Source: Wickerhamiella versatilis (taxonomy: Eukaryota). Taken from it: DNA of 61,855 bases. Below are positions 7,453 to 61,855 of this stretch, one piece after another. The stretch is taken from the NCBI GenBank assembly GCA_030867685.1, contig JAQOWU010000001.1, positions 1,054,001 to 1,115,855 on the forward strand, in the 5' to 3' direction. The number at the start of each line of letters is the position of its first letter. Within the stretch, counting starts at the first letter, position 1. The translations under genes and the position numbers were made by a program. The notes below the pieces were generated by a model that saw only the letters and a program-made list of their open reading frames with translations, ran no database searches and was not told the origin of the DNA.

Positions 7453-8069
7453 ATTATATTGAATATTAAGTATATTTATCCCACTTAACTCTTTTCTTTG
7501 TGACCCATGGCTCCTTCAGCCATGCAAAATAGCCCAATCTAGTTGGGCAAAGCAAAATAGCCTACTTCTTTGATAATTACTTGGAGCAATTGACTGTGGT
7601 TCTGACAGCGTATGTTACACTAAATTATTTGGTTGCGTGAATGAGAATGGCGCTAGTTGTGGTGCAGTCCTGGACCTTCGGCATGGACTGCTGTCTAATG
7701 CAAACATTTATCTACTGAAATGGAGTTATTTCATCGTATATTGATTGCAATATTCTCTCATATGACTTTTAGCACCAGTTAATCAGTCCGTTAACGGTTG
7801 AACGGGAAAGATACTCCTGTTTATGGGGTTGCTTTGTCATAATATACTCTGAAAGGAGGTGGTTTATTCAAAGCAAACGTTTGGGGACCTACTACGTTTC
7901 CAAGAATGCTTTAGTGTTTTCTAATAAAATTGTGGCTCTTGATTATACAGATAATGTCAACCTTGAGGCTGAGTAAATTGTTAGAGGAATGTCGTGATCA
8001 GCTTACTCAGTATCCCTGCTGCGTCGTCGGAGACAAACTTTATCAACTACTTTTGTCGGTGCCGCTCAA

Positions 8070-10064: not shown

Positions 10065-10904
10065 CTTCAAGATAAGAGACCTCAAGTTTACCTTGCTAAG
10101 CCAAGTTTTTTTTTCAAATTGTGTGTCGAAATATCGAGATCCACTCCACCACCTGAGATTGGTTGGATTGATGCTAAGAGATACATATTTATCAAATTAT
10201 AGAAATAGAAAGAGTCCTATTGAATTGGCATTTGAAATTTGATGAACCTCGAAAAGACTATTCCATCAGTTATTTTGTCATTAATAACTGGTGACCTGAC
10301 GCATCTCAACTATAGTAGAAACCATTTCTAATCCTTTTCTTGTGTCTATACCGGTTAACACCCACTGATAGTAAAAGAGTTACCATAACGCCAACCAGGA
10401 TGCCTACAACGAGTCCCGCCTTCTCTTCCTCTGCCCACTTTGGCCAGGACTCCACATATACAAGCTAATATTTTCAACATATGTCTTGGAAGCTTTTGTT
10501 GTTACACTCGCACTTCTGCTTGGCACAGGAGCACCCTTTCTTATCTGTGATAACGTTAAATAGCTAATATTTCATTACGCGCCTTGGTGGTCTTTGCTTG
10601 GTCAATTTGAAGCATCACCAGTGCTGTAGAACTGTAAAAAAAATACCCCAACTGAGAAAATGATGAGTCATAGAGATATGTATTATGTGTGTATAACCAA
10701 AGCGCATTTAACTTCCTCATTAGTCATTATGAACTTCATAACGTTTCACTGACTCGAGGAAAAATCTATCGACAAGTTAGACAGTCTGATCAGTGTATAT
10801 TAGTTACTTAGACCCCTTTTGCTACCCAAAAGTGTGAGGTGAGTAGATGTGACGCCTTTTTTGGTTGCAGATTAGCCTAGTGTTACGTCATAGCTCTCCT
10901 TGCG

Positions 10905-25537: not shown

Positions 25538-26237
25538 CTTGTTGTTTTACAGAAATAGGCATTGCCAATATGGGTTAACTACCAGCTCTAAGTTGTAAAA
25601 ACTAGCAACTTTCACTATTTTTTAAGTGCGAGGTAATAAGTCAGATGGTTGTACTCATCAGATGCTATTTCATGGGAACTGGTGGATAAACTATTCAAGC
25701 ATACATGATGCTATTTTTAACCATAGGCCATATTATTGGAGGCTCTCACTTAGAAGATTCTGCTAGCCTTTACTGACAGAAATTATGATATAATGTTGAT
25801 TTAAGCACGAAGAAATCGAGTGGATTGAGTTTTTGCCCTTGACAAACTACCTTGCCTTGCTTGACAGCTTCGAGCAGTTATGCTTTATGTATGACATTTG
25901 TATATTCATAAGCGAAGGTGCAGATGGCTAAATTTCCTATTAGGACCATACATTGGGCATAGAAAGAGTAATTAGATGACTTAATTTATTATTATGTGCA
26001 CCTTGGCCAGATTTGAGCTTAAACCTGATTATTGGCTCATCTCTGCGATTATAAATTGTTGCTTATCACCTTTACTAAGACGGTAGATCTAATACTTGGT
26101 TATGTAAGTAGGTACCATATATAATTATATACGAATGCGTAGATGTGAGAGTAGCAAGTCTTACTGATTGTAAGCAATAAATGAATTTCTTTTGAATAAA
26201 GTTGCGCTTGCCATTGGTTGGACAATGCAAAATAGCT

Positions 26238-29746: not shown

Positions 29747-30662
29747 AGCACAAGCATCAGGAAGAAAAATAGAAATTTTATAGAGTGGACTTTTTTATCA
29801 GTTTTCCACAAGAAGGTGAGACTAATACAAAAAGTCCATGTCATTAATTGCATAGTAAGATCTTGTCAGTTTTCCGAGACGGTAAGACCTGAATGTTTCG
29901 AAAAGGGAGTAATTACTTAGAACCATCTCGCTGCTTGAGACTGGTTGAATAATTGAAGATAGCATTCTTACTGTTCAGAACTTAGAATAATCACGACGTG
30001 ATAAACTGTTATCGCCATACTTTACTAGCAATTCCCTTAAGGTCACTATTGTCCTTTTTTAGGTTCAGCACGTCATGAGGGTGAATATTATAGCGACCTT
30101 CACACTATCTGAGACTGGTTGGAAACTGCAAGATGACAAATATTACAGGATTAGTCGCAGTTTAAACGTTCATGCTGAGTAATTTCAGATAAGGACTGGA
30201 AGCGAGGTTTCCCCACTAGCTGCATTGTATAAGCGATGTGATAATACAGAAATAGTTGCATTTCTGAAGACACTTCAATAGCATTGTAGTAACAAGCTCG
30301 AAATTTGTAAATATGGAAAGCATTGGGATATTAAAAGCTTCGAATTTGGGTAATGACAACGAATCACCGAAATAAATTAGTATGGCCATTATAGGTGTAG
30401 CAATATCGAACAAGAGAGAATCTGTGGGCACTTAAACTATCTGAAGCGAGAAAACCTACCCGATACCACTTCCGCCAGGAGAAACCTTCCGATAAATCAA
30501 TCTGCATTGCCCCTAAGCATTTCAGTCTCCGCTGACAAACTAGCGAAGATTAGAAATCCAACCGCATGATGTCTGGTGTGACATCACGTGGTATAACGCA
30601 TTTCCTTTCGAAGATATAACATTTCAATCTCGTAAAAGCCACTTGTAGTGTCAACGGCCTGA

Positions 30663-33071: not shown

Positions 33072-33902
33072 GTCTGGGTGTAGCTAGTCTAAGCTATAAT
33101 CATTTATAGAGATTATAGAGAGTTACATGATCATTAAATCTGTAGCTACATAGTCAATTTGATTTGATAGGTCAAGCTTTCTCGGGAATAGACAGTTCTG
33201 TATATGTATAGTTATCATATAAGAACCGTCTCTGGTCGTCACAGCAGTGACAGTCCACTCTGAAGATTTCCCGTATGTATAATAATGTGCACTTTTTATG
33301 ATACTATATCAGTAGATGAAAATCTCTAGGCTTTTTGAAAGACCCATATTTTTTCTTGGCATGAAGTTAGGATCTTTTATTTGGGGACTCGAAGGAGTAT
33401 TAGAGCCGTCAGACGAATGGATATAGAAAAAAAAACACATTATATTCTACACATGAAAATTCATTGCTCAACTCTGCATTAAAGACAGCCTTCATCATCT
33501 CACGTGTAATTGGTAATGGTCACGTGCCTAGCCGAGACCGTTGGCTTGACTCCAACCGGGGGCTATCTTGCATTGTCCAACCAGTTTGGTGCGGAATATA
33601 TATATATATATATATTGAAACCTCAGCTTTAATTTAGCGACAAAGCTTTGATCGGGGTCCTCTACGTTGAACAATAATAAGGTTCGTGAGGCAATGAAGT
33701 ATAGTCCATAGTCAACATCCAAGCTTCAAAAAAGGGTCAAATCCCCGTCTTCAAAAGTATTTTCTCCGAAATCAAACTGCTCTCATTCGGTTTTACAATG
33801 TTTTTAGCCGCATTATTACAAAGATATGACGATCACGCCATTGAATTTAATAATGGGCCATCAATGCATTTAGTTTAGCGAATTTGTCGACTAGCCCCCA
33901 CG

Positions 33903-35966: not shown

Positions 35967-36393
35967 TATTGGACATATCTAAGTTCTCCTGAGTGGTCCC
36001 AAAGTTCCCATATAGATTTTACACAGTGATAGATTCAATAAGTATAATAATTCCATACACTTCACGATGTTATCTGTAGACTGATTGCAAGATAGCAATG
36101 CAAGATAACCTACTGATGTGGGATCGAAACTTGGCAACCTGGTAGGTATATTTTAGTTGTTTATTTTTTATAGTAGCAGTGTGGCATAAGGGCGGTGGAT
36201 TCGTATAAATACTAATTTTGCCCGCGAATTTAGATAATTATATATGAAAAGCCCTAATTCGTGAATTAATATATAATCGCTAGAAGCACCCCACAGATAG
36301 TACTGTACTCAACATGACTACCTACAAATTTCATTACTAGCAGTACATGAAGTTTCAAAAAAGGGCTGCCTCCGATGGCATTCAGAGCTTCAA

Positions 36394-37346: not shown

Positions 37347-37607
37347 TTATGGATTTTGAATCAACGAAACTCCGGCCAGGTACATACATACAAGCTGTTC
37401 ACCATATATTGCGTGATGATTGTATAATCCTCCGACTGATGCATATAGTTTCACGAGTGGGGTAAAAAAGCCACGCAATTACAGGAAATTACAAAAAAAA
37501 TAGAGATCAAGCTACTGCATGGTTTAATTTAGATAAGAGTAATATGTGCCATACTGCGTAAGTGAGGAAAGGACTACGGTATCACCTCTGGAGCTATAAA
37601 CCTAATT

Positions 37608-40577: not shown

Positions 40578-40829
40578 TATCAACTGGTAGAACTTAAAAT
40601 ATATTTATGTCCTCGCACACATTGCTATATAGCTTTTGAAATGCAAGTCATACTGCTGTCCCCTATATATATAGCTTTCTGAAGCCTTCGAGTTTAAGGT
40701 TTATGACATAACATAGCATAGCATCTGGAGACATGGAGCAAAAGTCATGAATCGTTATCGTCATATAACGTGACCACAGGTGATCGCCGCAAAAGGGTTA
40801 TCAGGTAATTTTCAGGGTCATCTGAAACC

Positions 40830-42518: not shown

Positions 42519-42829
42519 TATTTCTTGTCTTATCTTCGAATTAATAGCATTTTTACAATTAAGAATCGTGGTTTCGCTTCACACACAAATTATGTAAATT
42601 ATCATCATAGATCAATCCAATGCGGTTTGATGAAAAAGTGATATAGAAAATTTGCGCTTCAATAACTTTGGCTGGCTGTAGAACGCAATATAGGCTAACT
42701 ACATGGCATTTAGCAGCATTCTGCAACAGACATCCAATTCACAATGGTCACGTGAATTGTAGTGATATTCTCATTACTTTGAAAAATTCTTTCGTCTCTG
42801 GTTTCCTTCTTGAGCTCAAAGAGAGGTTG

Positions 42830-44311
42830 ATGGCAATACTCCCACTGAAAAAGTTTGGGATAGAAGACAAAAAATTAAATGATAGGAAGACAGAGTCAAG
42901 CGAGACAGAGTCAAATGAGACAGACAGCCAAACGAAGTGGTATCATTCAACATTTTTTAACGCCACAATTCTAGGACTTTGTGACTTCACAGCTCCTGGT
43001 CTATGGAACGCTATGAGCTCTCTCGGTGCTAGTGGCATGGAAAAGCCCTATCTTGTCAATGCTTCGAGTGCGCTCACTTTTGGACTTATGTTCGTCGTAT
43101 CATTCTTTGGTTCTGCTGTGGTGCAGAGAGTTGGCTTAAGACAAGCTCTTGCGATTGGATGTGTGGGATATGCCCCCTATTCTGCCGCGTTGTACTGTAA
43201 TAATAGATTCGGTACTGAGTGGTATGTGATTTTCGGAGCAGCGTTGTGCGGGTTAAGTGCAGGGATATTCTGGACCGCTGAAGCAGCTATAGCTTTGAGT
43301 TATCCAGAGGTTAATCGTAAGGGTAAAATTTTGGCGTATTGGATGTGTTTCAATGTTGGTGGTGAACTTGTTGGCGGCTCAGTTAATTTGGGTCTTGACG
43401 CCAATAGGAATACCAAGGGCTCTGTATCCTCCAAAGTTTATTTGGTATTCATTGCGTTGCAGTGTCTTGGGCCGTTTATTGCCTTTTTACTCTCCCCGCC
43501 AGAAAAAGTTCAGCGCGTTGATGGCAAAAGGGTGAGACTTTACACTGACAATTCCGTCCTTAAAGAACTGCGAGAAACCGCTAGGTTCTTCATTAGAAAA
43601 GAATTTCTACTAATCTTACCCTTTGTTCTACAGAAAATGTTTCCAGGTCCATTCTTCAGCACTTATGAGACCCAGTTTTTCAGCGTACGGGCACGGGCCT
43701 TGGCATCCTTCCTTGGTTCTGTCGTATCTATGTTCTCCGGTCTACTTCTTGGCTTCTTATTCGACCGTAAATCGGTATCCAACAAGAATAAGGCTCGTAT
43801 TGGGTTTTGTATTATTGAAATATTGCAAGGAGGTATATTCATCTGGTCTACTATTAACACATTCTACTTCGAAAAGGAGGACAGGAACTACAACGTATTT
43901 GACTGGAGCGATCCCGGGTTTGGCAAGGCATTCGGTGTTCTTATGTTTTCTGACATTGCAACACAGCTAACAAGTCTTTATTTATATTACCTCATTGGTA
44001 ATTTGGCTAATAACCCTCAGGAAATCATAAGGCTTTCTGCAATTATGAGAGGATCAGAATCGGCATCTGAAGCAGTGAGCTATGGTCTTAATGCGGTTAA
44101 TGACCTGATAACTATCCCAAATAATGCTATAAACTTTGGTTTATGGGCAATTTCTCTGATAACTCCTGCGATCTTCGCTTGGAGAATTGGTATTCCTGGC
44201 GGTATAGGGGCAATACATGGCACGCTGAAGACTGACGAATCTGATAGTGACAGTGATGAGTTTATAGAAAATAGGGAAAAGGAGCCCACTACCACAGTTC
44301 AGCCGGCATAG
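42830..44311 (+). CDS. UNC-93-like MFS membrane protein
   Basis: PGLWNAMSSLGA.G, GYAPYSAALY, CGLSAGIFW.AEAAI..SYPE, FSVRARAL. ATG at 42830. Confidence 0.85.
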   Translation: MAILPLKKFGIEDKKLNDRKTESSETESNETDSQTKWYHSTFFNATILGLCDFTAPGLWNAMSSLGASGMEKPYLVNASSALTFGLMFVVSFFGSAVVQRVGLRQALAIGCVGYAPYSAALYCNNRFGTEWYVIFGAALCGLSAGIFWTAEAAIALSYPEVNRKGKILAYWMCFNVGGELVGGSVNLGLDANRNTKGSVSSKVYLVFIALQCLGPFIAFLLSPPEKVQRVDGKRVRLYTDNSVLKELRETARFFIRKEFLLILPFVLQKMFPGPFFSTYETQFFSVRARALASFLGSVVSMFSGLLLGFLFDRKSVSNKNKARIGFCIIEILQGGIFIWSTINTFYFEKEDRNYNVFDWSDPGFGKAFGVLMFSDIATQLTSLYLYYLIGNLANNPQEIIRLSAIMRGSESASEAVSYGLNAVNDLITIPNNAINFGLWAISLITPAIFAWRIGIPGGIGAIHGTLKTDESDSDSDEFIENREKEPTTTVQPA

Positions 44312-44806
44312 TATATTGAAGCAACAGCAATTTTAGTTGCAATTAACAATGCCACTCCAAATATTGACTCATGTAGTGTACACTAGCATACCCATTAAGG
44401 TGATGCGTCTGTCAAGATAAGATAAATAAGTAGACGGTTAATAGACCAGAAAAGACGCAGATACTTTCGTATTTGCTGGAAGTTCATATTTATAGTGTAT
44501 CCTAAAGTAATTTATCCACCAAACATAATTCTATGCTTCTATGATCTTGCCATCCTTGTAGTGCATTTACTTCTGTAGATAAGAATCTATGTTGATTATT
44601 AATCGGAGTCCTTGGTTTTCTGTGGGGAAATACGAGGCATCACGCAATAGTGTAGTACAAACCCTTATATCCGTAATTCGAGAACTCTTCATTTCCGGAA
44701 GTAAAGGAAAAACTCTGGAGAGTACTAGATAGAGTTAAGGCTAAAGTTTAGGTCTCGTTCTCAGTGGTGACATATTGGCGAATTGCCTCCAAACAACTCA
44801 ACCGAT

Positions 44807-46120
44807 ATGGCACCTCCAGCAGCTCTCAAGGCAGAGCCAGAACCTACACTACAATCCATTGACTCCAATGCGATTGGCAAGCTAACCTTGAATAGTAGCT
44901 CACCTTCCTATAGAGAGGGGACAAATTCACTCACTATACCCAAGCCGTCACCAAATAATGTGAACGCGGTGAAACATCTTCCAAAGCAAACCAGATCTAG
45001 ATTCCAGCGGCATGGGGTGGACCTTTCAAAAGGTTACCCTGAGTATCCTGAGAACCCTCCGTTTTACTTGGATGAAGGATATGCGATTCGCGGCGAGCCG
45101 TGGACACACATCGAGCGCGGGAAAAATGCAGACCCTGATAAGAAAGCTCTTTTTGACGCGGCTAAGGAGGTAAAACATCTTACTAAATACATCGGAACCG
45201 AGATTGTAGGCCTTCAGATCTCTGAACTTACTGATCAGCAGAGAGATGAATTAGCCCGGCTTATCGCTGAAAGAGTTGTAGTTTTCTTCCGCGACCAGGA
45301 CTTGTCACCCCAGAAACAACTCGAATTAGGCCACTACTACGGTAAAGTTGAGATCCATCCGAAGGTTCCTCACGTACCTGGACTTAATGGAACAACCGTT
45401 ATTTGGCCCAAACTAGCGAATCTCTCAGCGAAGAACAAATTCAGCTTCAAACATCCGGCAGGTACGTCATACTGGCATACCGATCTGGTGCACGAAATCC
45501 AGCCAGCTGGGATCACACACCTCCACAATGATACAATTCCTTCCGTAGGTGGTGACACCGTGTGGGCATCGGGATATGCGGCATATGATAAGTTGTCCAG
45601 ACCTTTCCAGAAATTTCTCGACGGTAAGAAAGCTGTCTACCGGTCCGCACACACATACTTGGACCGCAATGATCCTTTGTCAGGACCTAAATACATTGAA
45701 CGTGAGCACTATCTAGTACGGACCCATCCTGTTACTGCTTGGAAGTCTCTGTTTGTGAACCGGAGCATGACTGTGAGAATTGTCGGTCTCGAGCCAAAAG
45801 AATCAGCTACAATTCTGGAGCTACTCTACGAGGTTTACGAGGGTAATCCAGATATTCAAGTACGGTTTAGTTGGCAACCCACAGTTGAAGGTCTTGGTAC
45901 TTCCGCGTTATGGGACAATCGTATATCCCAGCATTTTGCCGTATGGGACTACGCAAACGAATCTTCTGCAGATGGCATAGAAGATGAAAGTATCGCCCGT
46001 CATGGTACACGTGTTACCTCTCTCGCAGATAAGACTTTTTTGATCCGAATTCGAAATCTCAGAGGGATAGCCTTGGCCTATCGAATCCTTGAACTGGTCC
46101 CATTCATATCTATCTTTTAG
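44807..46120 (+). CDS. JLP1: Jlp1-type sulfonate/2OG dioxygenase; C-terminal tail apparently frameshifted at a T6 run (46036-46041)
   Basis: DLSKGYP, AERVVVFFRDQDLSPQKQL, WHTDLVHE.QPAGITHLHND, WDNRISQH, RHGTRVT. One extra T would give the family-like tail FFDPNSKSQRDSLGLSNP* ending at 46092. Confidence 0.9.
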   Translation: MAPPAALKAEPEPTLQSIDSNAIGKLTLNSSSPSYREGTNSLTIPKPSPNNVNAVKHLPKQTRSRFQRHGVDLSKGYPEYPENPPFYLDEGYAIRGEPWTHIERGKNADPDKKALFDAAKEVKHLTKYIGTEIVGLQISELTDQQRDELARLIAERVVVFFRDQDLSPQKQLELGHYYGKVEIHPKVPHVPGLNGTTVIWPKLANLSAKNKFSFKHPAGTSYWHTDLVHEIQPAGITHLHNDTIPSVGGDTVWASGYAAYDKLSRPFQKFLDGKKAVYRSAHTYLDRNDPLSGPKYIEREHYLVRTHPVTAWKSLFVNRSMTVRIVGLEPKESATILELLYEVYEGNPDIQVRFSWQPTVEGLGTSALWDNRISQHFAVWDYANESSADGIEDESIARHGTRVTSLADKTFLIRIRNLRGIALAYRILELVPFISIF

Positions 46121-46353
46121 ATTTGAATAACTTGAAACATTGCTATTAGAGATTATTTAACTACTATGTGGGATAATTCTTGGTTTTTAAGATCTTCATA
46201 TATATATACGAGGGACTACACTGCGGAATGCTTTTGCTTCCTCATTGATTTTTTCAATATGGAATTTCGGTTTTATTGTCTGGGCTGGCAAACACAAAAA
46301 GGTCCTGGTAAATAAAACAAGCTATTTGCTAGATTTAGAAGTAAAATACTTGA

Positions 46354-47958
46354 TTAAATACTGTGTTCCGCAATTCCATCCTTCTCTGTGAAAGATATTT
46401 GAGCATCTTTCTCATGAATGAAATGCTCATCATGTCTCCCACCCAACCCTGGTAGCGCTCTGTCCTGATAGCTTAGATATATCGCGATGAGTGTTAATAT
46501 CAGGCCTCCTGTACACAAACATGCTGTATATGTCCAGCCAATGAAAAACTCGGGCTTGTAGTCTGTATCCCAGACAAGTATAGGTACAAATGCACCCGTC
46601 ACATACGCAAGATTATTTGTTAATGTGAGAACAATGTGTCTTTTCTCAGTATCACCTCTTAACAATTGGTTAGCCCAGCTGAATATATGGGGCTGACCCC
46701 AGGCTGTAGGTGCACCTACCACGAAATAAGCAAACCAATGCAGTCCAATAGGAACATCCCAGCCAGCTAGAACACCATTGCCAAAAATCTCACAGACAAA
46801 AAATGCTAACACAAAAGGGTAATTGAGACTTCCAAAATAATCACAAACCCAGCCAAGTATCAAAGCTATACCAATCCCAGTACCTAGTATCGCTGTAGGA
46901 TAAGTATTTTTTGCTTCTGGACCAAAGCCAAGATCCTCTTGAAGCCAATATAAAAACTGATTCTGTGACGATACCTCGCAGCTGTTGTTATAAGCCAAAA
47001 ATATCCACGGAAAGATGTATACTTCCCAAGACATAAAGGCTTTCTTAAAAGAGCTCCACGTAAAACTTTTCTGAGGACGCGCTCCAAACTTTTTCCGCCG
47101 AAGTAGAGCAATTTGTCGATCTTCATGTGTAAAATACCAGGATGTTGTTGTCTCTGGCGTGTTGGGATTCATTAGTATTGTATAGAGAGCAATAGGGAAT
47201 GATACAATTCCATCAATGATAAACACCCACTTGTAGGGTGGTTGAACACTAGTATGTTGCAGCCCTTTGATGACGGCAACCTGGAAGTAACTAGTAACCA
47301 TCTGACCAGCGACACCTGAAACTGCGAAAAGAGTAGAGCGCTTGGTGATCTCTCCACTGCTATACCAGCAGCCCAGAAGATACTCTACAACAGGAAAGTA
47401 GCCACTTTCCACAAGACCAACGAAGAATCTCAATGCACAAAGCTTGCCTATTGTATTACATGTTGGAGTGAGGAATGTGAGTGCCATCCAAACCAGCTCC
47501 AATACTCCAAGAAACCAGCGCGCGGGGAACCTATGAACTAGGTAGTTAGAAGGAATTTGGCCAACGATATATCCTGCAGTCCAGCAGGAAGTGAAAACTT
47601 GCTGGTCATTACCACTAGCATGCATATATTCAGCCAAGCCATTGGCGTATGCCACCGTGACATTGTTTTGGTCGACATACTTCAGGAAATAGCCAAAGCA
47701 TACTGAGCTCAGAAAGAATGCATCAAGCTTGAATAAGAAGTTTCTTTCTTTTGGAGGCTTATCGGCGGTATCCCAGAACACCTTAGCAAGCTTGTATTTC
47801 CAGCCACTTCTCCTTTCCAGTTCTCTATCATCCACGGTATTATCAAGTAGTCCCTCCCAGTCTCGATCAAGGTCTGTATACTCCGAATTTGTATCAGAAG
47901 CACCATGGACCCAGTATTCGTCCTTCGTACTTGGATTTACTTCCAAGCTTTGAGCCAT
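46354..47958 (-). CDS. SEO1: Allantoate/pantothenate-family MFS permease, Seo1-like
   Basis: KLD.FFL..C.GYF.KY.DQ.N..AY..G, GQIPSN, LRFFVGL.ES..FP..Y.LG.WY, W.FIIDG. ATG at 47958. Confidence 0.75.
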   Translation of the reverse strand: MAQSLEVNPSTKDEYWVHGASDTNSEYTDLDRDWEGLLDNTVDDRELERRSGWKYKLAKVFWDTADKPPKERNFLFKLDAFFLSSVCFGYFLKYVDQNNVTVAYANGLAEYMHASGNDQQVFTSCWTAGYIVGQIPSNYLVHRFPARWFLGVLELVWMALTFLTPTCNTIGKLCALRFFVGLVESGYFPVVEYLLGCWYSSGEITKRSTLFAVSGVAGQMVTSYFQVAVIKGLQHTSVQPPYKWVFIIDGIVSFPIALYTILMNPNTPETTTSWYFTHEDRQIALLRRKKFGARPQKSFTWSSFKKAFMSWEVYIFPWIFLAYNNSCEVSSQNQFLYWLQEDLGFGPEAKNTYPTAILGTGIGIALILGWVCDYFGSLNYPFVLAFFVCEIFGNGVLAGWDVPIGLHWFAYFVVGAPTAWGQPHIFSWANQLLRGDTEKRHIVLTLTNNLAYVTGAFVPILVWDTDYKPEFFIGWTYTACLCTGGLILTLIAIYLSYQDRALPGLGGRHDEHFIHEKDAQISFTEKDGIAEHSI

Positions 47959-48666: not shown

Positions 48667-51072
48667 TTATCGGTTCTCGTATTGTTTCTTTTTGAAAGAC
48701 ACCGAATCAAAGAGTATCTGCGTCCATTCTCTTGGCCAATCGCGTAAGAGTTCATCATCTATTGCCTCTGGACGATTAAGGTAATCGCTTGCAATGAGAT
48801 TTAGGTTTTCAAGGAACAAAGTCCTATCACTCAACGATAGCAGTGAGTGAGCATTTCTTTGACCACCAGGCCGACTAAGTCTCTCTGCTTCCCAATGCTC
48901 CATCAGCTCGCGATTCGGAAGTTTAGCCAATTTATTGAATACGAGTGCAGCCACAAAGGCTTGCTTTTCCCAGGCCGTGAAAGAGGGAGTACCAGTAGGT
49001 GGCCCAACAAAGGCAATATGATTGGAGTATATGTCGAACGTATGCTCGAAAATACCTGGTATATAATGAGCACCACCAGGAGATGAATAGGGTACCTTTT
49101 TGTGAGATTCTGGGTGGCGCCGATCCAAGTTCTGGAGAAACGGGAAGTGAAAGCGGTAGCCCGTTGCCAATATAATAGCATCAACAGTTTCTCCAGCATC
49201 AGTGTCCGAAAAATAAACGGAATTCCCAGCTACTTTTACCAAACTGCTTCGAAGTTCGACTCCTTTGCTCTCCACAGATCGTCCATAGGGGTGTTCCGAC
49301 CTTTGAGCAAGGAAAATCTTTGAAGCCGCAGTTCTGAGCTGATCCTTGATATCTAGACCACTTTCCCGTGTACCTACAACAAGAACCTTCTTATTTCGAA
49401 ATGGCGTGGGACCACGATAATCCGCGGAGTGAATCAGTTTTCCTGGAAACTTATCTAACCCTGGCACATCGGGTACTCGAGGCTCCCAGTTGTGGCCTAC
49501 CGCAACAATCAAGAAATCATAGTCCTTTTCCTCCCAGAGATTCTCGGATTCATTCACTTTTTGGCAGGTTATGATTCTGAATTTGGGATGATCCTCAGAC
49601 CCATGATTTTTTACATCCTCCACGGATGTGTTAAAATGAATATACTTTTCATATGGTTTTATTGAATTATCAACACGCTCCGCAACTTCCTCGCCAGAAA
49701 TAAAAAAAGGGCTTTCTTTTTGCAAGTCTTGTTTGAAGGCAGTAAAGCCAAACATAATCTGCTGGGGTACATTTGTCACAAGACCTGGATAAACAGGTGA
49801 TTCACTGTATTTCTCCCTAGAATTGCTGGGTAGTTTTGAAGGAAAGGGTCCATTTGGTATCTGCAAAGACTTTTTCGGTTGCCTTAAGTCTTCAGAATCT
49901 GAGAAATCTTTTTCATTTCTTTTTGCCCATATCCCCCCAGGTTTATCTCGCCGCTCAAAAATATCAATTTGATGATGAGGAAACTTAAGAAATGCTCTGG
50001 CTGAGGATATTCCAGATGGACCTGAGCCAATTATGGCTACACGTTTGGGCTCAAGTTCATAAGATGGCGACGGGAGCTGAGAGCCGAATGATATATAGTT
50101 CGGAGCTCCATGCGCTTGTCCATACGGAAGCTTTTTAAATGGCTCTGTCGGCTTACCTTGCTCCAAAAGTTGCCTCAAACTGGGATTGCTGATAAAATGA
50201 TCCGAAAAACTTACTGCTTGCGCAGTATTTAATGCCTCCCCGATCAAAGAGGGATCTGGCAAAGACCATATTACTGGGAACCGTTTTGAAGGAAGTTTTG
50301 TTCCAAATGGTAGTCTCAAATATGCAATCTTGATACCTAGAGAACTTAGATCAACTTCTCGGTCCAGGTAAACACCCACCCTACCCGGAAAGATGCCCGA
50401 TAAGGCTGAAATTGTCTCTTTCAGGAGTCGTAGTGGGTCAGCATACTTATCACTACGCAAATTGCTCTGAGGATCCAGAAATTGACCTATGAGGGAATTA
50501 CCCCCAGCATTCACCTCTACTCCATCGGCACCTGAAAGTTTTGCATTTTGTGAGCTGATGGCAAAGCTGTCGATGATTCGCGCTATCTCCTCTGCAGTAA
50601 GCTCTCGAGGAATACTCGATTTATCACACCATTCGTCATTGAGCTCTACCACTGGCGTAGTGGTAGATGGACCTACGGTCTCAGTGTCCTCAAAAGATGA
50701 GGGAGTGAGTTTATCGTAGTAATAGACCTGGTTGCGCAACAGAACACCTTTAGTAGTGCTTCGCCCAGGATGAAATAACTGAATATAGAACTTGCCACCT
50801 GATTGGTGAATTAGGTCAACTATCGCCTTCCACGCTGCTACCTGTTCCAAACTTGCAATGAGAGGAGCGAATAACGATGTGCCAGCACTATATCCAACCC
50901 CCACAGGTTCTGAAATGGTGAGCGACTTACCTTGAGACCTTTCAATGTAAAACTTTCTGGCTAATTGAGATGGTATTCCCCAAGGAGCACGTCGATTATC
51001 AGAAGATGCGTGAACAACGCGATTATCGACTACTTGGCCACCAATTTCAATTTCTGAGAACACAGCGGCCAT
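48667..51072 (-). CDS. Fusion: degenerate Old Yellow Enzyme barrel + class B flavin-containing monooxygenase (FMO)
   Basis: N-term NRVV.A, WK.IVD.IH..G.KFYIQLFHPGR, PRELT.EEI, GADGVEVN, QFL...SN.R.DKY, FISNP. C-term AIIGSGPSG, FPGKLIHSADYR (FxGxxxHxxxY), VVGTRESGLD, ATGY. Confidence 0.88.
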   Translation of the reverse strand: MAAVFSEIEIGGQVVDNRVVHASSDNRRAPWGIPSQLARKFYIERSQGKSLTISEPVGVGYSAGTSLFAPLIASLEQVAAWKAIVDLIHQSGGKFYIQLFHPGRSTTKGVLLRNQVYYYDKLTPSSFEDTETVGPSTTTPVVELNDEWCDKSSIPRELTAEEIARIIDSFAISSQNAKLSGADGVEVNAGGNSLIGQFLDPQSNLRSDKYADPLRLLKETISALSGIFPGRVGVYLDREVDLSSLGIKIAYLRLPFGTKLPSKRFPVIWSLPDPSLIGEALNTAQAVSFSDHFISNPSLRQLLEQGKPTEPFKKLPYGQAHGAPNYISFGSQLPSPSYELEPKRVAIIGSGPSGISSARAFLKFPHHQIDIFERRDKPGGIWAKRNEKDFSDSEDLRQPKKSLQIPNGPFPSKLPSNSREKYSESPVYPGLVTNVPQQIMFGFTAFKQDLQKESPFFISGEEVAERVDNSIKPYEKYIHFNTSVEDVKNHGSEDHPKFRIITCQKVNESENLWEEKDYDFLIVAVGHNWEPRVPDVPGLDKFPGKLIHSADYRGPTPFRNKKVLVVGTRESGLDIKDQLRTAASKIFLAQRSEHPYGRSVESKGVELRSSLVKVAGNSVYFSDTDAGETVDAIILATGYRFHFPFLQNLDRRHPESHKKVPYSSPGGAHYIPGIFEHTFDIYSNHIAFVGPPTGTPSFTAWEKQAFVAALVFNKLAKLPNRELMEHWEAERLSRPGGQRNAHSLLSLSDRTLFLENLNLIASDYLNRPEAIDDELLRDWPREWTQILFDSVSFKKKQYENR

Positions 51073-51598
51073 AACCTTACTTTATAGTGAGTAAAAACGC
51101 AAATATTAATCTCTAGTCTGCTTATTCGCCTAATCTCTATCGATGGTGCAACAACATGTGATTTGACATGCGTGATGACTTACCATGGTCTATCTATGTG
51201 ATAGCACTTACGAACGGAGAAATGGTCAAGCAATTAGGTCTGAAATAATTACTAGCAACCCGATGAGTTGAGTGGTTACCCTCTCAATATTAAGTTTTTT
51301 CTTCTTTATCACCCTGCCGTGAAAACCTTCTAGTCCATCTGAGCAGACATGCCAGTATTACTGGTGTTTGGTAAGTGCAATGCGGTATCATTTGATGGTT
51401 TAAATGCTATTTAAATGGCGTGAGTTCTAATCAGTAAGATAAGCCGCATTCTCGTGCAGGAAGTAGTTATCATTATGTCTACTTCACTACCTTAGGCTGC
51501 CTGGGCGATGCACGGTAGCTTTTGTCGTGGTGGGTTACCAATGAATGTATTTCGGGCAATATTTTATATCTATACAAAGTACAGGTCTATTCCGCAGT

Positions 51599-52156: not shown

Positions 52157-53800
52157 GAGCGAGTGAATGATGAATTATTTGGTGAAATTTGCTACTGTAT
52201 TTAAGCGACCACTGCAAAATTAGCTCATACTCCTGAAACAATCATCCAAATTTCTTAAGCTTTAGGGTTATGTCGGCTAATATCGCTTCGAGGCCTTAAT
52301 GTATCAGTGAAATGAACCTAATTCCTTTCACTATGACTACGCATAGTACCTCTCTCCCTTTCGAGTATATTGATAACAATCGATCCAATTTGTCATATAT
52401 GTACACACGTGTCCGGACAATATATATATAAAGCCGGTTGCTCTTCGACTCAAATAATCTCATTAAACATTTATCTAGTCAGTGATGTATAGGATTGAAT
52501 AACTGTCATGTAAAAATATACAGTCTAATTTGGCATTACAAATGAACTGAACTCATCTAAGCTGCAATGTATTAAGCCGATTAACCCAACACATCCAAGA
52601 TGGATAACAACTAGAAATCTCTCGAAGCCGGGGATGTGTATATATCGGAAAAGAAGAAAACAAGCCAAGAAACTGCCTAAGACCACCAGGACAATAAAAA
52701 GTTAGCCACTTCTCGTGGTGAGAAGAACATTATATTTCACAAAATCTACTAGATAGTACTCTCAAGAGCGTTTTGCTGGTGAATTGTAAGACTTGTGAGA
52801 TATCTTTCAACGTACTTGTCAAACCTCACCAATATTTGAGGGTTGATCACCGCATTTACAAACAAGGTTAAATATTTCGCAGCAGAATTAAGCCAGAAAC
52901 AAGGAAACGAGGAAAAAACAACGCAACAATAGACGGTGAAAAAGATGCAAAAAAAAACTACAGCACCTGCCGTTCTCACGTGGTCTCCCACCGTAATACT
53001 GAATCAGGCTCTCAGCAGCTTATGTATGGCTGATCGGACGGGAAGCCCAGTTACCTGCTGGATATGGCCGTAGCTGTTAATGAAGTTTGTACAATACTTT
53101 ATAATCATACTTCTGAGAAGTGCCTTGTGCTAGCTCTAGGTACGTCCACGGTATGCAAAGATAAGAATATACGAGAGGTTGAATACTCGCGCATCAGCTT
53201 CTGCTATGATAAGAGCTATAGTATGCAAATGTACCAATGGTATGTAGATAATCGATTGGTTCCCACAATAACAAGCGGGAAAATGGACTGGTAAAACCTG
53301 CCAGTAACATTGAAAGCTTTCGGGCTTTTCAACGATACCACTGAGACCCTACTTGCGGTGAAAAACCTGTCCCAGCGGACGCTAAATTTGAATTTTAACC
53401 TACCTTAACGGCACCCATTTTATTCCTGGCGCCCCGGAAAACCAGCAATACATGACGGAAACGCTTCTGGAATGGCTACCTAATCTATAAGCGCTGACTG
53501 GGCCCATTCGAACAATATAATTAGTTTGATTATTCGCCTAGCCCGTGTAGATATCAGCCTGTGAATACTAGATAGTATTACCAGCGACCGGGAGATATTG
53601 CGCTCATGTAATTTGGGTAGCGGCTGGTAGGATAAGCAGACCGAGGGGCAAATCTATGTCATTCTTAGATGATTAAATTGTGGGTTTATACAGCAATTTG
53701 ATTTATAAAGAATTCAATCTGTTTCAAACACATAAATGGATCCAATAGCCATTGTGGTAATCACAAATAACGTTATTCTATTCTTAAAGAAAATAGCTCT

Positions 53801-55085
53801 CTAATCGCGATTCCAAGAAGATCCTGCTTTTTCCTTTTCCTTTGCTGCATTCGCCAGGTCCTCTGTGCGGAGCTTCGAATTTGGATCCAAAAATGGTCGC
53901 TCACCTAGAGAAAGTGCACGTATACCTACGCGGGGTAGAATATCGCGGTTGGGAAGTCTGAGGTCGTGAATTATCGTGTGATAAGTTGATCTATTGTCCC
54001 AAATTGCGATATCATATTTGTTCCACTTGTAACGCAGTTGAATCTCAGGGCTGCTCTTCAACAAGTCGCTCAAATACCTTTTGACATAGTCGTTTTCTTG
54101 ACCACTGACTTCGTTGATCTTAGTGAAATGGTGTCCGATTCCGAATATAGACTTCCAGCCGGTAACTGGATTGGTACCAACTATTGGATGAGTAGCTGTT
54201 AGCTCGGTGCCTACGTTTTCCGGTGCACCTCGCTCTTCAGACCAGAAAGGAACCTTCTGTTTCGCTGAGACATTAGCAAATTGCGGCTGAGAGTACTCTC
54301 CTGTAAGCTTTTCCAAGTATGAAAGAAACTCGGGACTGACTTTTTCAGCCAATCCATAGCCAGATGCCCAGATTGTATCGCCGCCACTGCCCCCCTACAC
54401 TACCTGAATGGACTTGGGAAAGTTCACTTTCATCAGCCGAGCTGCTAGGGGTCTTTGTAAGCCTCAAACCAGCATAACTAGCTGGCACAGGCTCAAAAGT
54501 GATATCACTGTGGAATCCTCCCGCGGGATCCCACCCAGATGAACGACTGATGCCTTTGAATTATTCCGCAAGCAGTTCAGAGTCAAGCACATGGACTTCT
54601 GGAATCGCTTTCCCGTTGTGGGGATCAATTGCAGAATTAGTAAATGATGTGGGGTGAATGTGGAGACCTGAAGAAGATGGTTTATTTGCGGCTCGACCCA
54701 GAGCGTCCACCAGGCGTTTCTGCTGGTCAACGGATAGATCATACTGATTCTTGAAAAAGACCACACCTCTTTCGCTAACCGTTATAGCTAGATCACGCAA
54801 GAGCTCTTCATCCTGTAGTATGTCTGTTAGCCTGGCTTCTTCGTAGAATTTTCGGCCCAGACCTGGCGTCACTTCAGTAAACTTGTACTTTCCACTTAGT
54901 TTTCCCGAGTGTTTCAGAGGCTTGTAATTTTTGAGAACCGATGGGCCTTCTTTAGGCGTATGCGCCCAAGGAGATGGTCCTACCAGCTTAGATTTGGGGT
55001 TGTTCCTGAATGGGGTAGGATCTTCTTGATAACTAACAAATTTAAGCGAGTCTAAAGGAGAATCAACCGAGAGAGCCGGTGCCAT
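53801..55085 (-). pseudogene. Third TauD-family dioxygenase, interrupted
   Basis: RDLAITVSERGVVFF, an in-frame TAA at 54561-54563, FHSDITFEPVP, a +1 shift in a G6 run (54390-54395), then GGDTIWASGY, HPIV.TNPVTGWK, WDNRSTYH. Confidence 0.88.
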
Positions 55086-55272
55086 TTTCTGCTCACTTGT
55101 TGAAATAGTAGGACCATCGTCGTTCCTTTATACTTGCAAATTGCATCATAGCATTACAAAACACGTGATACATGTTATACACGACAACTAAGCTAGCCCA
55201 ATTGCAATCAACATATCAAAATACGTATAGCAGCCGTGAAAAGCTAGTGAACTGTCTCGTTAAAAGATATCT

Positions 55273-56979
55273 CTATGTAGTAAATCTGAAATCTAATCTC
55301 GCCGTGTCTTCCTTCTCAGAGCGATCCAAATAGTCCATTTGCTGCTTATGCGTCATTCCGCTCCACTGTTTCTCTTTCTGGGAGTTTCGCATGTAATAAT
55401 ATAAGTACGAAAGAGCGATGGTGAAGAAACTCGCTATTGTTATCGCGATTAGTTGGGTAAGACCACGTCGATAGTAAGGTGAATCATCGGCACGGAACAT
55501 CTGCGATGCAATGATGCCCGCCAACTGAGAAAAAACATTGGTTACAGCTCCAGATACTGTACGCATACCAACTCCTGCTGAATTGTGCGAGGCCCAGGTC
55601 ACATTAAGTGCTTCCACACGAGGAGCACCAAGGGCTAGAAGAAGGAGAGCATAGGATCCCCAATGGTCTTTGAGAAATCCAGGCCACCATCGCATTGCAG
55701 CAAAACACGGAAGCATCCATAGAGGAACAATGACCATGGGTATCCAGTAGGATTTCAGAGCTCTACGTCCGTAAATCTGAGCCAGAAGTGTGATTATCTG
55801 GAGAAAGTTTTGTGGAATCATGAGAAGACTTGTGTTCACTGATGAGAAGCCCATCCTCCTCAGAAGAACAGGCATATAATTGGTTAATGGTCGGTTTTGT
55901 AAATCACCGAATATTCTTACAATATATATCGGCCACAAATCATAATTTAGGATGCAGCGAACAATTTGTTTCAACCCCATGGGTGCTCGATTATTCATTG
56001 TGCCTTTTGCTGGTTCATCTCTTAATACATGATTGATAATGACCTTCTCTTCATGAGGAGAATACCATCCATGTGGCCTATACCACGCTCGGGTCTGAGA
56101 TGGTGAAGGAGACATCAGAAAGAATGCGAGCACGCCGATTAACAAAGAAAATAGTCCTTCAATCAGAAATACATACTGCCATCCATGCCAGCCATTGGAT
56201 CCCTCAAGATTAGAGTAGATGCCGTATGAAATAAGGGAGCTGAATGCTTGCGTCAGGGGATTAGCCGTGTATAGCCAGCCGACCCGAGTAGCGAGCTCAG
56301 GTCCGGTGTAGAAATAGCTCATCCATAATATCATATCACTTTTGTTAGCATCGAATTGAAATATTTTCCCTCTTTTGAATACTTACGGAATAAATCCTCC
56401 TTCCATCGCACCTATTAAGCATCGAGTTACCAAGAAGCCCGCCCGTGACTTTATCCGACATTGAACAATGGCGACGATTGACCAGAGGCACATTTGCGTA
56501 GGAATCCAAATATCGGGTCCGATCCATTTTGAGATCAAATTTGAAGGAAGCTCCATTCCTAAGAAGCACACGAGATTAACGGTGTTTCCCAGGTTGTAAT
56601 CGTCAGTCGATAATTTCAAATCGGAGAGGAAATTATCTGAAACAGCATTTTGAAGATTGAACCTATCGATATTCAGAGCAAATAACATGATGAATGCGAA
56701 AAGACATACATGAAGATCAGTTTTCCTAAGCGTAATTTTCCGGACTTCTGCTTTCGTGTAATAGAAGACAGGATCAAATAAATGCCTATTTTCGTATCCT
56801 GATTCTTCGTAAAGCCTTTTCCAGTATTTTGCTACTTCTTTATCACTGAATGGGTTTTTCAAGCCACCGTCGCACTCAGGCTCTTTGTGCAAATTCTCGC
56901 ATGTAACAGCGTTTTCAGAATTCCTGCTGAGACTATGGGAGCCAATCTCTTGGACTTCCACTTGTGGTTCTTCTTTCAT
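55273..56979 (-). CDS. Second Soa1-like MFS sulfonate transporter, two exons: 56979-56387 and 56338-55273
   Basis: Splicing joins the two ORF-track entries as EGGFIP-DMILWMSYFY, colinear with EGGFIPDVSLWMSYFY in the paralog at 40830. Ends RLDFRFTT. Confidence 0.9.
56339..56386 (-). other. 48-nt spliceosomal intron
   Basis: GTAAGT donor and TGCTAAC branch point followed by AAAAG acceptor. It contains an in-frame stop and its removal restores the protein. Confidence 0.9.
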
Positions 56980-58440: not shown

Positions 58441-60306
58441 ATGTCTTCACGAATCGAGAAGCAGCGCCGTACGAGGGTATCAATTGCTTGTGACAGCTGC
58501 AGAAGACGGAAGATACGCTGTAATGGGGGAAGTCCGAGATGTAGCAACTGTGAAACATATGGCGATGAATGCGTATATGCATTTCTACCTGACAGCCAGA
58601 GCGATCCGAAACTTGTGGAGATAAGCAAAAGACTGGAAAAAATCGAGGGATTGATTCGAGCAAAACATGACTCACACTGCTCCCCTGTTATTGACAGGCA
58701 TTTCGATATAGTCAACAACGAAAATGCACATCGAGGGATTAATCAGGAGGTATCCTTGTTCAATAATGTTCAAGGGAAGGAGAAAAATCTTGGACCGACG
58801 TTCAATGATAAAATTACACATTTAAAGGCGCATACTAGTGGAATAAAGGAAAGCTCGACAGTGTACATGTCGGGAGTGTTTCTCTCAATTCTCAGTACAT
58901 CCGACATATCACTGCTTTCAGAAAAGTTGAATGATCCATATTTGTGGCAAAGTCTAGAGGAAAAATCATACAACATGTGGCGCTTGTCTCACGCGTTACT
59001 AGGACGTCTTCTAGAGCCATCGAAAAATTTCTCTCCCGATCCATTATACTTTATGAATTGTATAAGAATTTATCGGCAGATCGATGGTCCATACGTTCAT
59101 CCTCTCATTTCACCCGAGGAGCTGTCAGATGACTTTTTGAATAATCTAACTGAGCCTGTTAAGAATGGCATTTTGGCTGCTGTAGTAATTATTGGGAGCC
59201 TTGGGATGCGAATGTATCCCTCATCAGAGCTAACTCATTTAGCTACAATCAAGGAACATGAAGATTCTGCTTATTACCAGGTGATTCGCAGTCTAAATAT
59301 GATTCGCTTTTCTCAGCCTGGATTCATCGAAGTCAGGATATCTATGTTACTTTGGTGGCTACTCCACTCATTCAGCTTCTTCCCGTCTACTGCACACTTC
59401 TTCGCGCCAATAGTCGAAATGGCGAAGGCTATTGGGATTGACCGGCGTGAGCTAAATGAACGATATGATCCAGATGATGCTATGCGGCGGAATAAAGTGT
59501 GGTTCTTGTTAACTAACTATCAGTATATTCTTTGCATACCACTTTCCTTGAAGGCTGCAGTCCCTCAGTCCACAATTGATTCAAGCTCGGATTCAATGGC
59601 GGATGAAATCCTCAAATATGCAATAGGTATCCACAAAATATATGACAAATCTCGTGATCGTTTATTTTCAGTTCTTAGCCGTAACTGCTCCTCAACTCAG
59701 CTTCTGAATGATATTACTTCGCTAAGCAAAGAACTAGAAAATTGGCGTGAGTCGCTCCCTGGTGCTCTATGGACAAACCATTTCGAACCTCAGCTCAGTC
59801 TCAAAGAATTTTTACACAAGTTCCCTGCAGATAATTTGAGATATAAGTACTACTACACAGTTATAGCCATTCACTCCATTCCCGCGTACGATGGTAATCT
59901 GCTCCCCCAAAGGATCTTGGTGTCTTTACAAAAAGTATCCGATGTCGCAAAAGAACTATTTAATATGGCTGTTCAGTCACAAAAGTTAAAAGGAGGTTGT
60001 ACATTACTACATAATTGCAATATTACCACTGCGTTGTCATGCTTTCTCTATAAACAGCTGCGCTATCCTGACGAGTACTCTAACTTTGAGGACTTATGTA
60101 TGCTCCAGGAGCATATCAAGCTGTTCAGAGAGAACAGCTGGTCTCCGACTGGGAAGGAAAACCCTATCTCACAAATTTGGGAAGTGTTGATAGATATAAT
60201 GGCACGACACCATGATATTTATTGTGCGACTTCCTCAGAAGAGGTGTATAATGAAATGATATCTACGGCCGGTATAGGTGGCAAAGATCAATGCCTCATT
60301 GGGTAA
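58441..60306 (+). CDS. Zn(II)2Cys6 fungal transcription factor
   Basis: ACDSCRRRKIRCNGGSPRCSNCETYGDEC, RLEKIE coiled coil and a fungal TF middle region. Confidence 0.93.
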   Translation: MSSRIEKQRRTRVSIACDSCRRRKIRCNGGSPRCSNCETYGDECVYAFLPDSQSDPKLVEISKRLEKIEGLIRAKHDSHCSPVIDRHFDIVNNENAHRGINQEVSLFNNVQGKEKNLGPTFNDKITHLKAHTSGIKESSTVYMSGVFLSILSTSDISLLSEKLNDPYLWQSLEEKSYNMWRLSHALLGRLLEPSKNFSPDPLYFMNCIRIYRQIDGPYVHPLISPEELSDDFLNNLTEPVKNGILAAVVIIGSLGMRMYPSSELTHLATIKEHEDSAYYQVIRSLNMIRFSQPGFIEVRISMLLWWLLHSFSFFPSTAHFFAPIVEMAKAIGIDRRELNERYDPDDAMRRNKVWFLLTNYQYILCIPLSLKAAVPQSTIDSSSDSMADEILKYAIGIHKIYDKSRDRLFSVLSRNCSSTQLLNDITSLSKELENWRESLPGALWTNHFEPQLSLKEFLHKFPADNLRYKYYYTVIAIHSIPAYDGNLLPQRILVSLQKVSDVAKELFNMAVQSQKLKGGCTLLHNCNITTALSCFLYKQLRYPDEYSNFEDLCMLQEHIKLFRENSWSPTGKENPISQIWEVLIDIMARHHDIYCATSSEEVYNEMISTAGIGGKDQCLIG

Positions 60307-61630
60307 TTTTTGATGCTAATATCGCTGCAATTAAGTACACATATGTTCTGTCAAACTATGTATTATGTACCTAGCCCAGTTCACTCGAGTATTTGAACGG
60401 TATTCTTCCCGCCACGCTCAACTTATTCCAGCCAGTCACCGGAACAACCAGGAAAACAAGATGGTTGTTATCATGGAGATTATCTATTAAAGCTTTACTT
60501 AGTGATATCAAGCAAATGATAACTTTATGCACAAATGCTAGTGCTGATTATGGAAGGAAGTCGAGTACGCGGCACAATTTATATCTACTAATTGCGTTTT
60601 ACCATACTGACATATTGATCACGTGATAATTTGCAATTGGTCTCAGACGGTTTATCATCGTCAGCCGCAAGATTCAACTAAAGCTGATCCTGGATACACA
60701 CGCTTAATTATCTTCGCAAGCTATTCCACTTCCAATTCACCACGCGAAACTTTGGAAGGTGGCTCAAGTTTTTCTCTGTTACCTATCAAAAGCTAGTCTC
60801 GACATCTTAGGTAAGAATATCTGAATGATATGAGAATCGACTTCAATAAGGTTTTTTTTGGCGAGATGACCAAGCAAGGTTATCGGTAGTAGTGTGCACA
60901 ACCAGAATAGGACGGGGTTAGAACGGGCCACTGAATTCTGGGTACTTTCTATCCAGAAAGTCACAAATTTGACACCATTTCCGCTGTACAGGGTTCATCA
61001 TTAAACCCATGTGCTCACTACTCTATTGATCAAAGTAAAGAGCTGGTGAAATACCCATAGAACATGACAACAATATTATCGCAATGGTTAGCTCTAAGAT
61101 GCAAGCTTCGGATATCCATCCCCGATATCCCAGAGGCGCTATCTGAAAGTGGTGTCTCAAAATATTTTAACAATACCTTACAGGAGTATGCTCGCTTTGA
61201 ACACTTCGGATTCTCGATGGCTATCTAAGCAGCTAGGGATCTCTGTCGACTCGCAATTATTATGGTTCTTAAGAAATTATAATGGTGACCCACTTGATAG
61301 CTTTTAAATTCAAAATAAGAAGTGTCGAATATCTAATAAATATCTTGTGGACGGATTCCTGTACAGTCAGACAACAGGGCATTCCACCAAACCGAGCCGA
61401 ATCATGCATGCTGAATCATAATGAACGAGCCACGCAGCCAGGACCAATCCATCCTGCGCCCAGCTTCAAGACTAAGGGACGACTTTGAGTTGTGGATTGC
61501 CACGGAGTAATCGTTTATCAGTGGAGCTTAGGTTGCTTTCCTGGCTGACAATGTTTGGTGGATGTAGATTTTCATAAGGTAGAGCAAATAGCGTCGGACT
61601 GCTGCAGAATTATTATATTTGTGTATTATA

Positions 61631-61855
61631 GACTGGTTGGACAATGCAAGATAGCCCACTTCACTACCTGAGACTGGTTGGACAATGCAAATAGCCCACT
61701 TCACTACCTGAGACTGGTTGGACAATGCAAGATAGCCCACTTCACTACCTGAGACTGGTTGGACAATGCAAGATAGCCCACTTCACTACCTGAGACTGGT
61801 TGGACAATGCAAGATAGCCCACTTCACTACCTGAGACTGGTTGGACAATGCAAGA
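61631..61855 (+). repeat. 41-bp tandem repeat, 5.5 copies, running off the window end (candidate telomeric or subtelomeric satellite)
   Basis: Unit GACTGGTTGGACAATGCAAGATAGCCCACTTCACTACCTGA starts at 61631, 61672, 61712, 61753, 61794 and 61835. Copy 2 lacks one G; the others are identical. Confidence 0.97.

Follow-up and report, generated by a model that had tools for sequence, protein, structure and literature searches.

Does the tandem repeat that closes this stretch of yeast DNA cap a chromosome, or is it a local amplification of a dispersed sequence? The window (the whole stretch of 61,855 bases analysed here) ends in a head-to-tail array of a 41-base unit, AGACTGGTTGGACAATGCAAGATAGCCCACTTCACTACCTG, which Tandem Repeats Finder placed at 61630-61855 (5.5 copies, score 445, 98% matches and 1% indels); among the 25 rows obtained for the whole window, no other was nearly as strong. 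The exact 41-mer was found four times, starting at 61630, 61711, 61752 and 61793, and in none of 100 shuffled sequences. The window end truncates the last copy. Of the five full copies, four are exact and copy 2 (61671-61710) lacks a single base, making the array homogeneous. It extends to the final base of the window, and no other repeat follows it there. The first-pass annotation had described near-perfect 41-bp copies running to the window end and had proposed that they might be an exceptionally long telomeric unit; the observation of the array is real. Its statement that the unit is not G-rich was reproduced by recounting (9 G, 11 C, 12 A and 9 T on the plus strand), and no G-rich strand runs 5′ to 3′ toward the end. 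The left window end is ordinary sequence. The right one looks like a contig end, as suggested by the odd length of the window and by a nearby cluster of differences from other samples.

Comparisons of the unit with other known sequences and structures were negative within their respective scopes. No Rfam family was matched at the gathering threshold, the tRNA/tmRNA search with ARAGORN returned 0 tRNA genes, and the 22-base core of the unit had 0 matches in the JGI metagenomes. When four 14-base pieces of the unit were searched against the text of papers, a search that covers main text, one piece was found, in an unrelated rust-fungus study. Two units folded as DNA were weaker than shuffled sequences (z +2.5 and +1.6), and a hairpin model for the unit was dropped for this reason.

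The window consists of gene-dense fungal DNA with ca. 43% G+C. CTG is read as leucine: conserved Leu columns coincide with 15 of the 24 CTG codons of ENA and with all three of AOX. The closest named relatives of AOX belong to Dipodascales (55-64% identity; Sugiyamaella 58%), and those of ENA to CUG-Ser yeasts (ca. 60%), so that the two proteins point to different orders. In a sister lineage, AOX is 91% identical. Eight of 10 window proteins belong to 90% protein clusters, in which the sole named member is a 43-aa 'hypothetical protein'. By these codon and protein comparisons, the host is a budding yeast with the standard code. The window encodes three TauD dioxygenases, one of them a fragment, five full-length MFS ORFs and a sixth limited to the later portion of the MFS profile, luciferase-like, old-yellow-enzyme and flavin monooxygenase flavoproteins, an arylsulfotransferase and two Zn2Cys6 regulators. 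The repeated TauD, MFS, flavin monooxygenase and Zn2Cys6 genes, together with likely decayed genes near the end, look like a subtelomeric neighbourhood.

Several individual loci were recorded in this gene array. Likely decayed genes occupy 54561-56979 on the minus strand, where a 174-aa TauD fragment covers only profile positions 3-87 and a 353-aa MFS ORF is restricted to profile positions 113-346; a 198-aa ORF without an assigned family lies immediately upstream of the latter. An intact 316-aa ORF at 13334-14284 (minus strand) combines a LysR HTH domain (PF00126) with a LysR substrate-binding domain (PF03466) and is a candidate for bacterial origin within the yeast genes. Two fusion proteins share an N-terminal old-yellow-enzyme (Oxidored_FMN) domain, which is joined to a luciferase-like monooxygenase at 30663-33071 (plus strand) and to an FMO-like flavin monooxygenase at 48667-51072 (minus strand). 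The sole Rfam find in the window was a lone 5S rRNA gene (RF00001, 77.6 bits) at 52955-53075 (minus strand) within a 2.4-kb spacer; given this solitary position, 5S genes seem to be dispersed rather than contained in the rDNA unit.

Approximately 1.3 kb of gene-free DNA precedes the array, in agreement with the first-pass annotation: the final ORF of at least 150 aa stops at 60306, and beyond it only stop-to-stop frames of at most 84 aa are present. This flank and the junction were compared over a 2.9-kb stretch with four public runs (X1, X2, X17 and X20), using contigs only and a likeness of at least 85%; the X1 and X2 contigs derive from short reads, and their samples belong to different studies. 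Records 19 and 20 of X2 (449 and 447 bases) match the window up to 61633 and then continue with 208 bases each that are unlike the window, and record 5 of X1 (2,783 bases) matches 60697-61633 and continues with 1,844 bases unlike the window. Among the contigs listed with the array-proximal flank, all pass 61633 into unrelated DNA and none enters the array. The window version and the X1 and X2 versions have only AGAC in common at the array start. Compared with these two independent samples, whose flank runs on past 61633, the window is therefore truncated, precisely at the array start. The possibility that the loose letters behind 61633 represent a worn unit was ruled out, since the first 30 of them in X2 showed no likeness to the unit (p 0.42) and the first 20 were absent from the window.

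The DNA closer to the genes also varies among samples. The homologous 16.3-kb contig of X17 and X20 departs from the window at 61139 and extends ca. 8.2 kb further, so that the end region is strain-variable, as subtelomeres are. No cover was found in these two runs at 61208-61591, which means only that no contig there reaches 85% likeness, and over 2,140 bases their neighbouring DNA shows 131 letter differences and 33 gaps relative to the window (ca. 6%). The segment 61357-61633 is present about twice in X2. Taken as a whole, the junction looks like a variable subtelomere that lost its end in the strain of the window and was capped by added units. Three substitutions and six indels separate the window from both X1 and X2 at 61450-61569, with only one such difference in the 2,422 bases preceding this cluster; either poor assembly of the contig tail or a paralogue may be responsible.

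Two further observations concern the same flank. A second copy of 60466-61007, roughly 90% alike, lies on contigs of 4.9-6.3 kb in X17, X20 and X1, not in X2, and this segment is a repeated element in some strains only. At 59945, all four runs have C and the window has T, representing either a private base or an assembly error.

The unit was also found singly inside the window (Table 1). An nhmmer search of 61.6 kb detected eight diverged copies (E 3.6e-05 to 0.045) and two weaker ones, and nine copies were counted in the window, spanning at least 54 kb at a density of ca. one per 7 kb. The first-pass annotation had reported fragments scattered internally; the scatter was borne out, but the pieces are not fragments: they are diverged copies, each roughly a unit in length. 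Aligned in register, they correspond to a one-unit element in another phase, CCACTTCACTACCTG followed by AGACTGG…GATAGC (41 bases), and some of them are 5′-truncated. Eight of the nine are on the plus strand, the same strand as the terminal array (binomial p ca. 0.04), and all nine lie outside the ORFs of at least 150 aa, which make up 63% of the window (0.367^9, ca. 1e-4). None falls in the six divergent spacers (5.4 of 21.1 kb; chance ca. 0.07), and two are located between convergent genes. With n = 9, the strand and spacer patterns are only suggestive. A reading of the single copies as promoter elements is unlikely, given their absence from divergent spacers in this small sample.

Table 1. 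Coordinates of the terminal array, its flank and the single unit copies in the window.
Feature	Position	Strand	Remarks
Diverged single copy, intergenic	7529..7568	+	Second partial match just upstream (7511-7538)
Diverged single copy, 5′ part of the element	10141..10168	+	76 bases past the stop of ORF 8070-10064
Single copy, restricted to the 3′ part	26213..26236	+	21/22 bases as in the unit; between convergent genes
Full-length diverged copy (41 bases)	29923..29963	+	177 bases past the stop of ORF 28199-29746
Full-length diverged copy	30097..30136	+	174 bases after the copy at 29923..29963
5′-truncated copy	33562..33588	-	33560-33585 identical to unit positions 3-28 (26/26 bases)
Weak, rearranged copy	36077..36108	+	E 0.16-0.5; between convergent genes
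Diverged copy	42657..42693	+	E 0.045 in the first pass; 138 bases past the stop of ORF 40830-42518
Full-length diverged copy	51479..51519	+	Between two minus-strand genes
Gene-free spacer	60307..61138	.	Behind the Zn2Cys6 regulator (58441-60306)
Lineage-specific subterminal segment	61139..61629	.	Absent from X17/X20 (depth 0-5.3)
AGAC, junction of the presumed capping event (microhomology)	61630..61633	+	Common to the first unit of the array and the continuing flank
Tandem array, 5.5 copies	61630..61855	+	Tandem Repeats Finder, exact-match counts

Inspection by eye revealed no inverted ends or flanking target duplications at any of the nine window copies, and the element, at just 41 bases, does not have the features of a mobile short element such as a MITE, SINE or solo LTR. 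Given this lack of inverted ends and target duplications, of tRNA or Rfam likeness and of a fold, the element fits no known mobile class. The reverse-strand copy, whose identity to the unit covers just 26 of 41 bases (33560-33585), cannot for that reason be the template of a telomerase RNA. As observations on this locus, the copy, which is the best kept on the reverse strand, is followed by an imperfect palindrome (CCGGTTGG…CCAACGG) within 33558-33640, and an (AT)10 run lies beside it at 33596-33615.

The scatter extends far beyond the window. The stretch or part of it was found in 20 of the 24 listed runs, from 13 studies; these runs are mostly food-fermentation metagenomes, together with four runs of one coded organism, of ca. 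10 million contig letters each. Contigs matching the 2.9-kb stretch numbered 161 in X2, 226 in X17, 222 in X20 and 159 in X1, and judging from the depth table and the listed pieces, nearly all of these 159-226 contigs per run lie on the repeat. The unit occurs in more than 100 contexts per genome and in both orientations. For example, a copy lies mid-contig at 2511-2563 of record 24 of X2 (5,307 bases), and another at 3345-3407 of record 13 of X17 (5,000 bases). With nine copies in the window and 159-226 contigs per run, the unit is not confined to chromosome ends. The summed depth over the repeat in X2 was 35,832-47,522 versus 129 for single-copy sequence, i.e., 278-368 times higher. Loose ends on both sides of the copies showed low agreement with one another, indicating that the flanks are many and different. 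Five of the 15 listed joints between nearby copies join opposite strands, and such pairs occur at single-copy depth.

For the phases of the copy edges, 24 of 347 loose-end rows were listed: 14 of the 15 listed rows behind the copies (63 contigs) have the 3′ edge at unit positions 27-32, and the nine listed rows before the copies fall at positions ca. 1-6 (four rows, 11 contigs) or 27-39 (five rows, 12 contigs). The 3′ edge of the copies varies rather little and their 5′ edges form two classes, which fits a templated product with a fixed stop. No short G-rich repeat was present among the same 24 of 347 rows.

Tandem units were found at high summed depth in all four runs. Where 58-60-base contigs extend over more than one tandem unit, their depth was 15-17 versus 129 in X2, and 3.6-4.8 versus 18 in X17 and X20. 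These low-depth contigs would be error bubbles of a very deep tandem path, and tandem units should accordingly number far more than 5.5 in both lineages. The unit itself is unchanged in X17 and X20, where 110 of 226 and 108 of 222 contigs, respectively, are at least 99% alike.

Confirmed telomere units of yeasts include those of Candida albicans (23 nt) and Kluyveromyces lactis (25 nt) (PMC7857110). The first-pass annotation had treated 23-25 bp as the range of long yeast units, which is outdated, as the same 2020 review and its supplementary table give putative units of 30, 33, 34 and 43 nt. Its supplementary table 1 contains Wickerhamiella domercqiae (30 nt) and Starmerella bombicola (20 nt); putative units of 33-34 nt are reported for Kodamaea, Hyphopichia burtonii and Spathaspora passalidarum (the latter two with 34 nt), and Pichia norvegensis, with a putative unit of 43 nt, has one of the longest motifs proposed for yeast telomeres (PMC7857110). 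Because published putative units reach 43 bases, a unit of 41 bases is long, not unprecedented. Several of the putative units in the table are not G-rich, and judging from the putative motifs of S. bombicola and W. domercqiae, G-richness is no strict requirement in budding yeasts. The 41-base unit is absent from this supplementary telomere table. Compared with nine published motifs of related or long-unit yeasts on both strands (18 tests), it showed no convincing likeness; the best match was the Blastobotrys proliferans motif, TGGAGACAGG, on the plus strand (nominal p 0.003, ca. 0.05 after correction; all others at least 0.09), and this likeness was discounted as support. No repeat sequence is given in the available part of the Starmerella genome paper (PMC12983215).

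Long-unit yeast telomeres resemble the array in having a precise, long head-to-tail unit, a position at the contig end and adjoining genes of subtelomeric type. They differ in that intergenic single-copy scatter, as found here, is not mentioned in the available part of the review (PMC7857110). A literature search likewise yielded no yeast telomere unit scattered like the 41-base unit. To our knowledge, a yeast telomere unit dispersed as single intergenic copies has not been described.

Chromosome healing offers a second point of comparison. SiRTAs, the sites in Saccharomyces cerevisiae where de novo telomere addition is especially frequent, consist of short TG-rich tracts, are bound by Cdc13 and occur mainly within coding sequence, and the internal telomere-like sequences of this yeast show subtelomeric enrichment and an orientation that stabilises the side with the centromere (PMC10055226). 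As in healing, the window end combines a truncation relative to other isolates with repeats that begin from a short overlap, and eight of the nine window copies have the SiRTA-like orientation if the chromosome end is on the right. Unlike SiRTAs, the copies here are whole 41-base units and exclusively intergenic. S. cerevisiae also carries interstitial telomeric TG tracts between the subtelomeric X and Y′ elements. The copies would be comparable to these tracts as internal, end-pointing telomere units marking old junctions, whereas they differ in being single units spread over at least 54 kb and in more than 100 contexts.

On the evidence above, we tentatively favour a telomerase-type telomere with a 41-base unit formed at a healed truncation, with the scattered copies as by-products or relics of the same activity. 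An account in which the 41-base sequence is a dispersed intergenic element, amplified or inserted locally at the contig end while another repeat forms the true telomere, is possible but less likely. It readily accommodates the more than 100 contexts per genome, in both orientations and within multi-kb contigs, the confinement of all nine window copies to the 37% outside ORFs of at least 150 aa, and the nearby copy pairs, direct as well as inverted (5 of 15 listed joints), at single-copy depth; the start phase of the array also coincides with a recurrent 5′ edge of the copies. However, such an element would belong to no known mobile class, having no inverted ends, duplications, tRNA or Rfam likeness or fold, and it would leave the identity of the unit in lineages ca. 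6% apart unexplained. Moreover, an interstitial array of 225 bases should not halt a long-read assembly, and from a long array one would normally expect over 5.5 units to remain at the contig end.

The end could also be a real chromosome end that is maintained without telomerase, by recombination or rolling-circle (ALT-like) copying, and that was seeded from a scattered copy. Telomerase-negative yeasts of the Microstromatales, basidiomycetes in which the loss of Est2 has been shown, provide the precedent: non-canonical, non-G-rich tandem repeats of 52-178 bp, mostly end-specific and in arrays of 1.6-21.6 kb, form their physical chromosome ends (PMC13234504). The 41-base unit is likewise not G-rich, and the scattered single copies offer seeds. 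The precedent is nevertheless imperfect, as the Microstromatales units are longer and mostly end-specific, and the occurrence of the 41-base unit in tandem at high depth, in a second lineage too, argues against an end-specific motif. In addition, the array begins within a unit at an overlap of four bases, and the X1 and X2 sequences offer no homologous seed, which is better matched by templated addition; we therefore consider maintenance of this kind improbable. Still less probable is that the array is partly an assembly artefact, that is, a low-quality tail built from few noisy or chimeric long reads, with the short-read contigs giving the true sequence. This would account for the nine differences (six of them indels) from X1 and X2 within 61450-61569 against one in the 2,422 bases before, for the lack of any listed X2 contig joining the flank to the array, for the depth of the bin 61496-61591 (209), which is close to that expected from X2 records 19 and 20 alone (ca. 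212), and for the finding that none of the 24 listed runs contains more than 0.97 of the sampled window words. Yet, with a single error-like indel in 225 bases, the array is much cleaner than the flank, a consensus requires reads that truly join flank and array, X2 is not necessarily the assembled strain, and tandem units are real in all four runs.

Returning to the telomerase-type telomere, its plausibility derives from a homogeneous array, a flank that runs on elsewhere, a variable end region, a unit kept across lineages, an apparently deep tandem path, a subtelomere-like neighbourhood, the published long units and the edge phases of the copies. Against it stand the dispersal of the unit, the differences at 61450-61569, the lack of G/C strand bias and the lack of likeness to published motifs. 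The telomeric proposal of the first-pass annotation is retained as the single most likely reading on account of the X1 and X2 flank continuation, the homogeneity and the conservation across lineages, but without confinement of the unit to ends. Because the unit also sits singly at more than 100 intergenic places, it is not a simple end-only telomere repeat. The window array probably caps a shortened yeast chromosome, and the window end would then be a physical chromosome end.

The steps of such an event can be proposed as follows. The subtelomere would have broken inside the lineage-specific element, and perfect 41-base units would have been added head to tail from the 4-base AGAC overlap. The likeliest agent would be a telomerase whose RNA template comprises one unit plus a few bases. 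Given that the single copies begin around unit position 27 and end around positions 27-32, the template may be ca. 45 bases long, from CCAC to CCAC. The single copies themselves might be by-products or relics of this end-adding activity. One possibility is that they are former, healed ends that became buried by regrowth of the subtelomere, another that they are units written into breaks that were later rejoined. The array starts at unit position 1, which is a recurrent 5′ edge of the copies (four of the nine listed rows before the copies, 11 contigs), so AGAC may be a boundary of the repeat family rather than a chance microhomology.

A more far-reaching version of the same idea is that an end-adding enzyme, either a telomerase with a template of ca. 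45 bases or another reverse transcriptase, builds 41-base telomeres and has also written single units into hundreds of internal breaks or former ends. These would constitute a mostly end-pointing, genome-wide set that could be reused as seeds, and the window end would be one such rescue, seen as a difference between strains. We regard this as a speculative and rather improbable extension.

The kind of finding is otherwise familiar from long-unit telomeres and interstitial telomere-like sequences, and the unexpected part is the intergenic scatter of whole units at more than 100 places. If the array is not a telomere, the 41-base sequence would be an unclassified dispersed repeat of a food-fermentation yeast that is able to form arrays, and it would be a cautionary case for software that identifies telomere motifs solely by contig ends. 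If it is a telomere, the unit would be among the longest in yeasts, with only the putative 43-nt unit of P. norvegensis being longer in the available table of PMC7857110, and an unusually long telomerase RNA template would be predicted. The scattered units would then represent a natural record of chromosome healing and subtelomere growth, raising the question of how the cell would distinguish an internal 41-base unit from a telomere.
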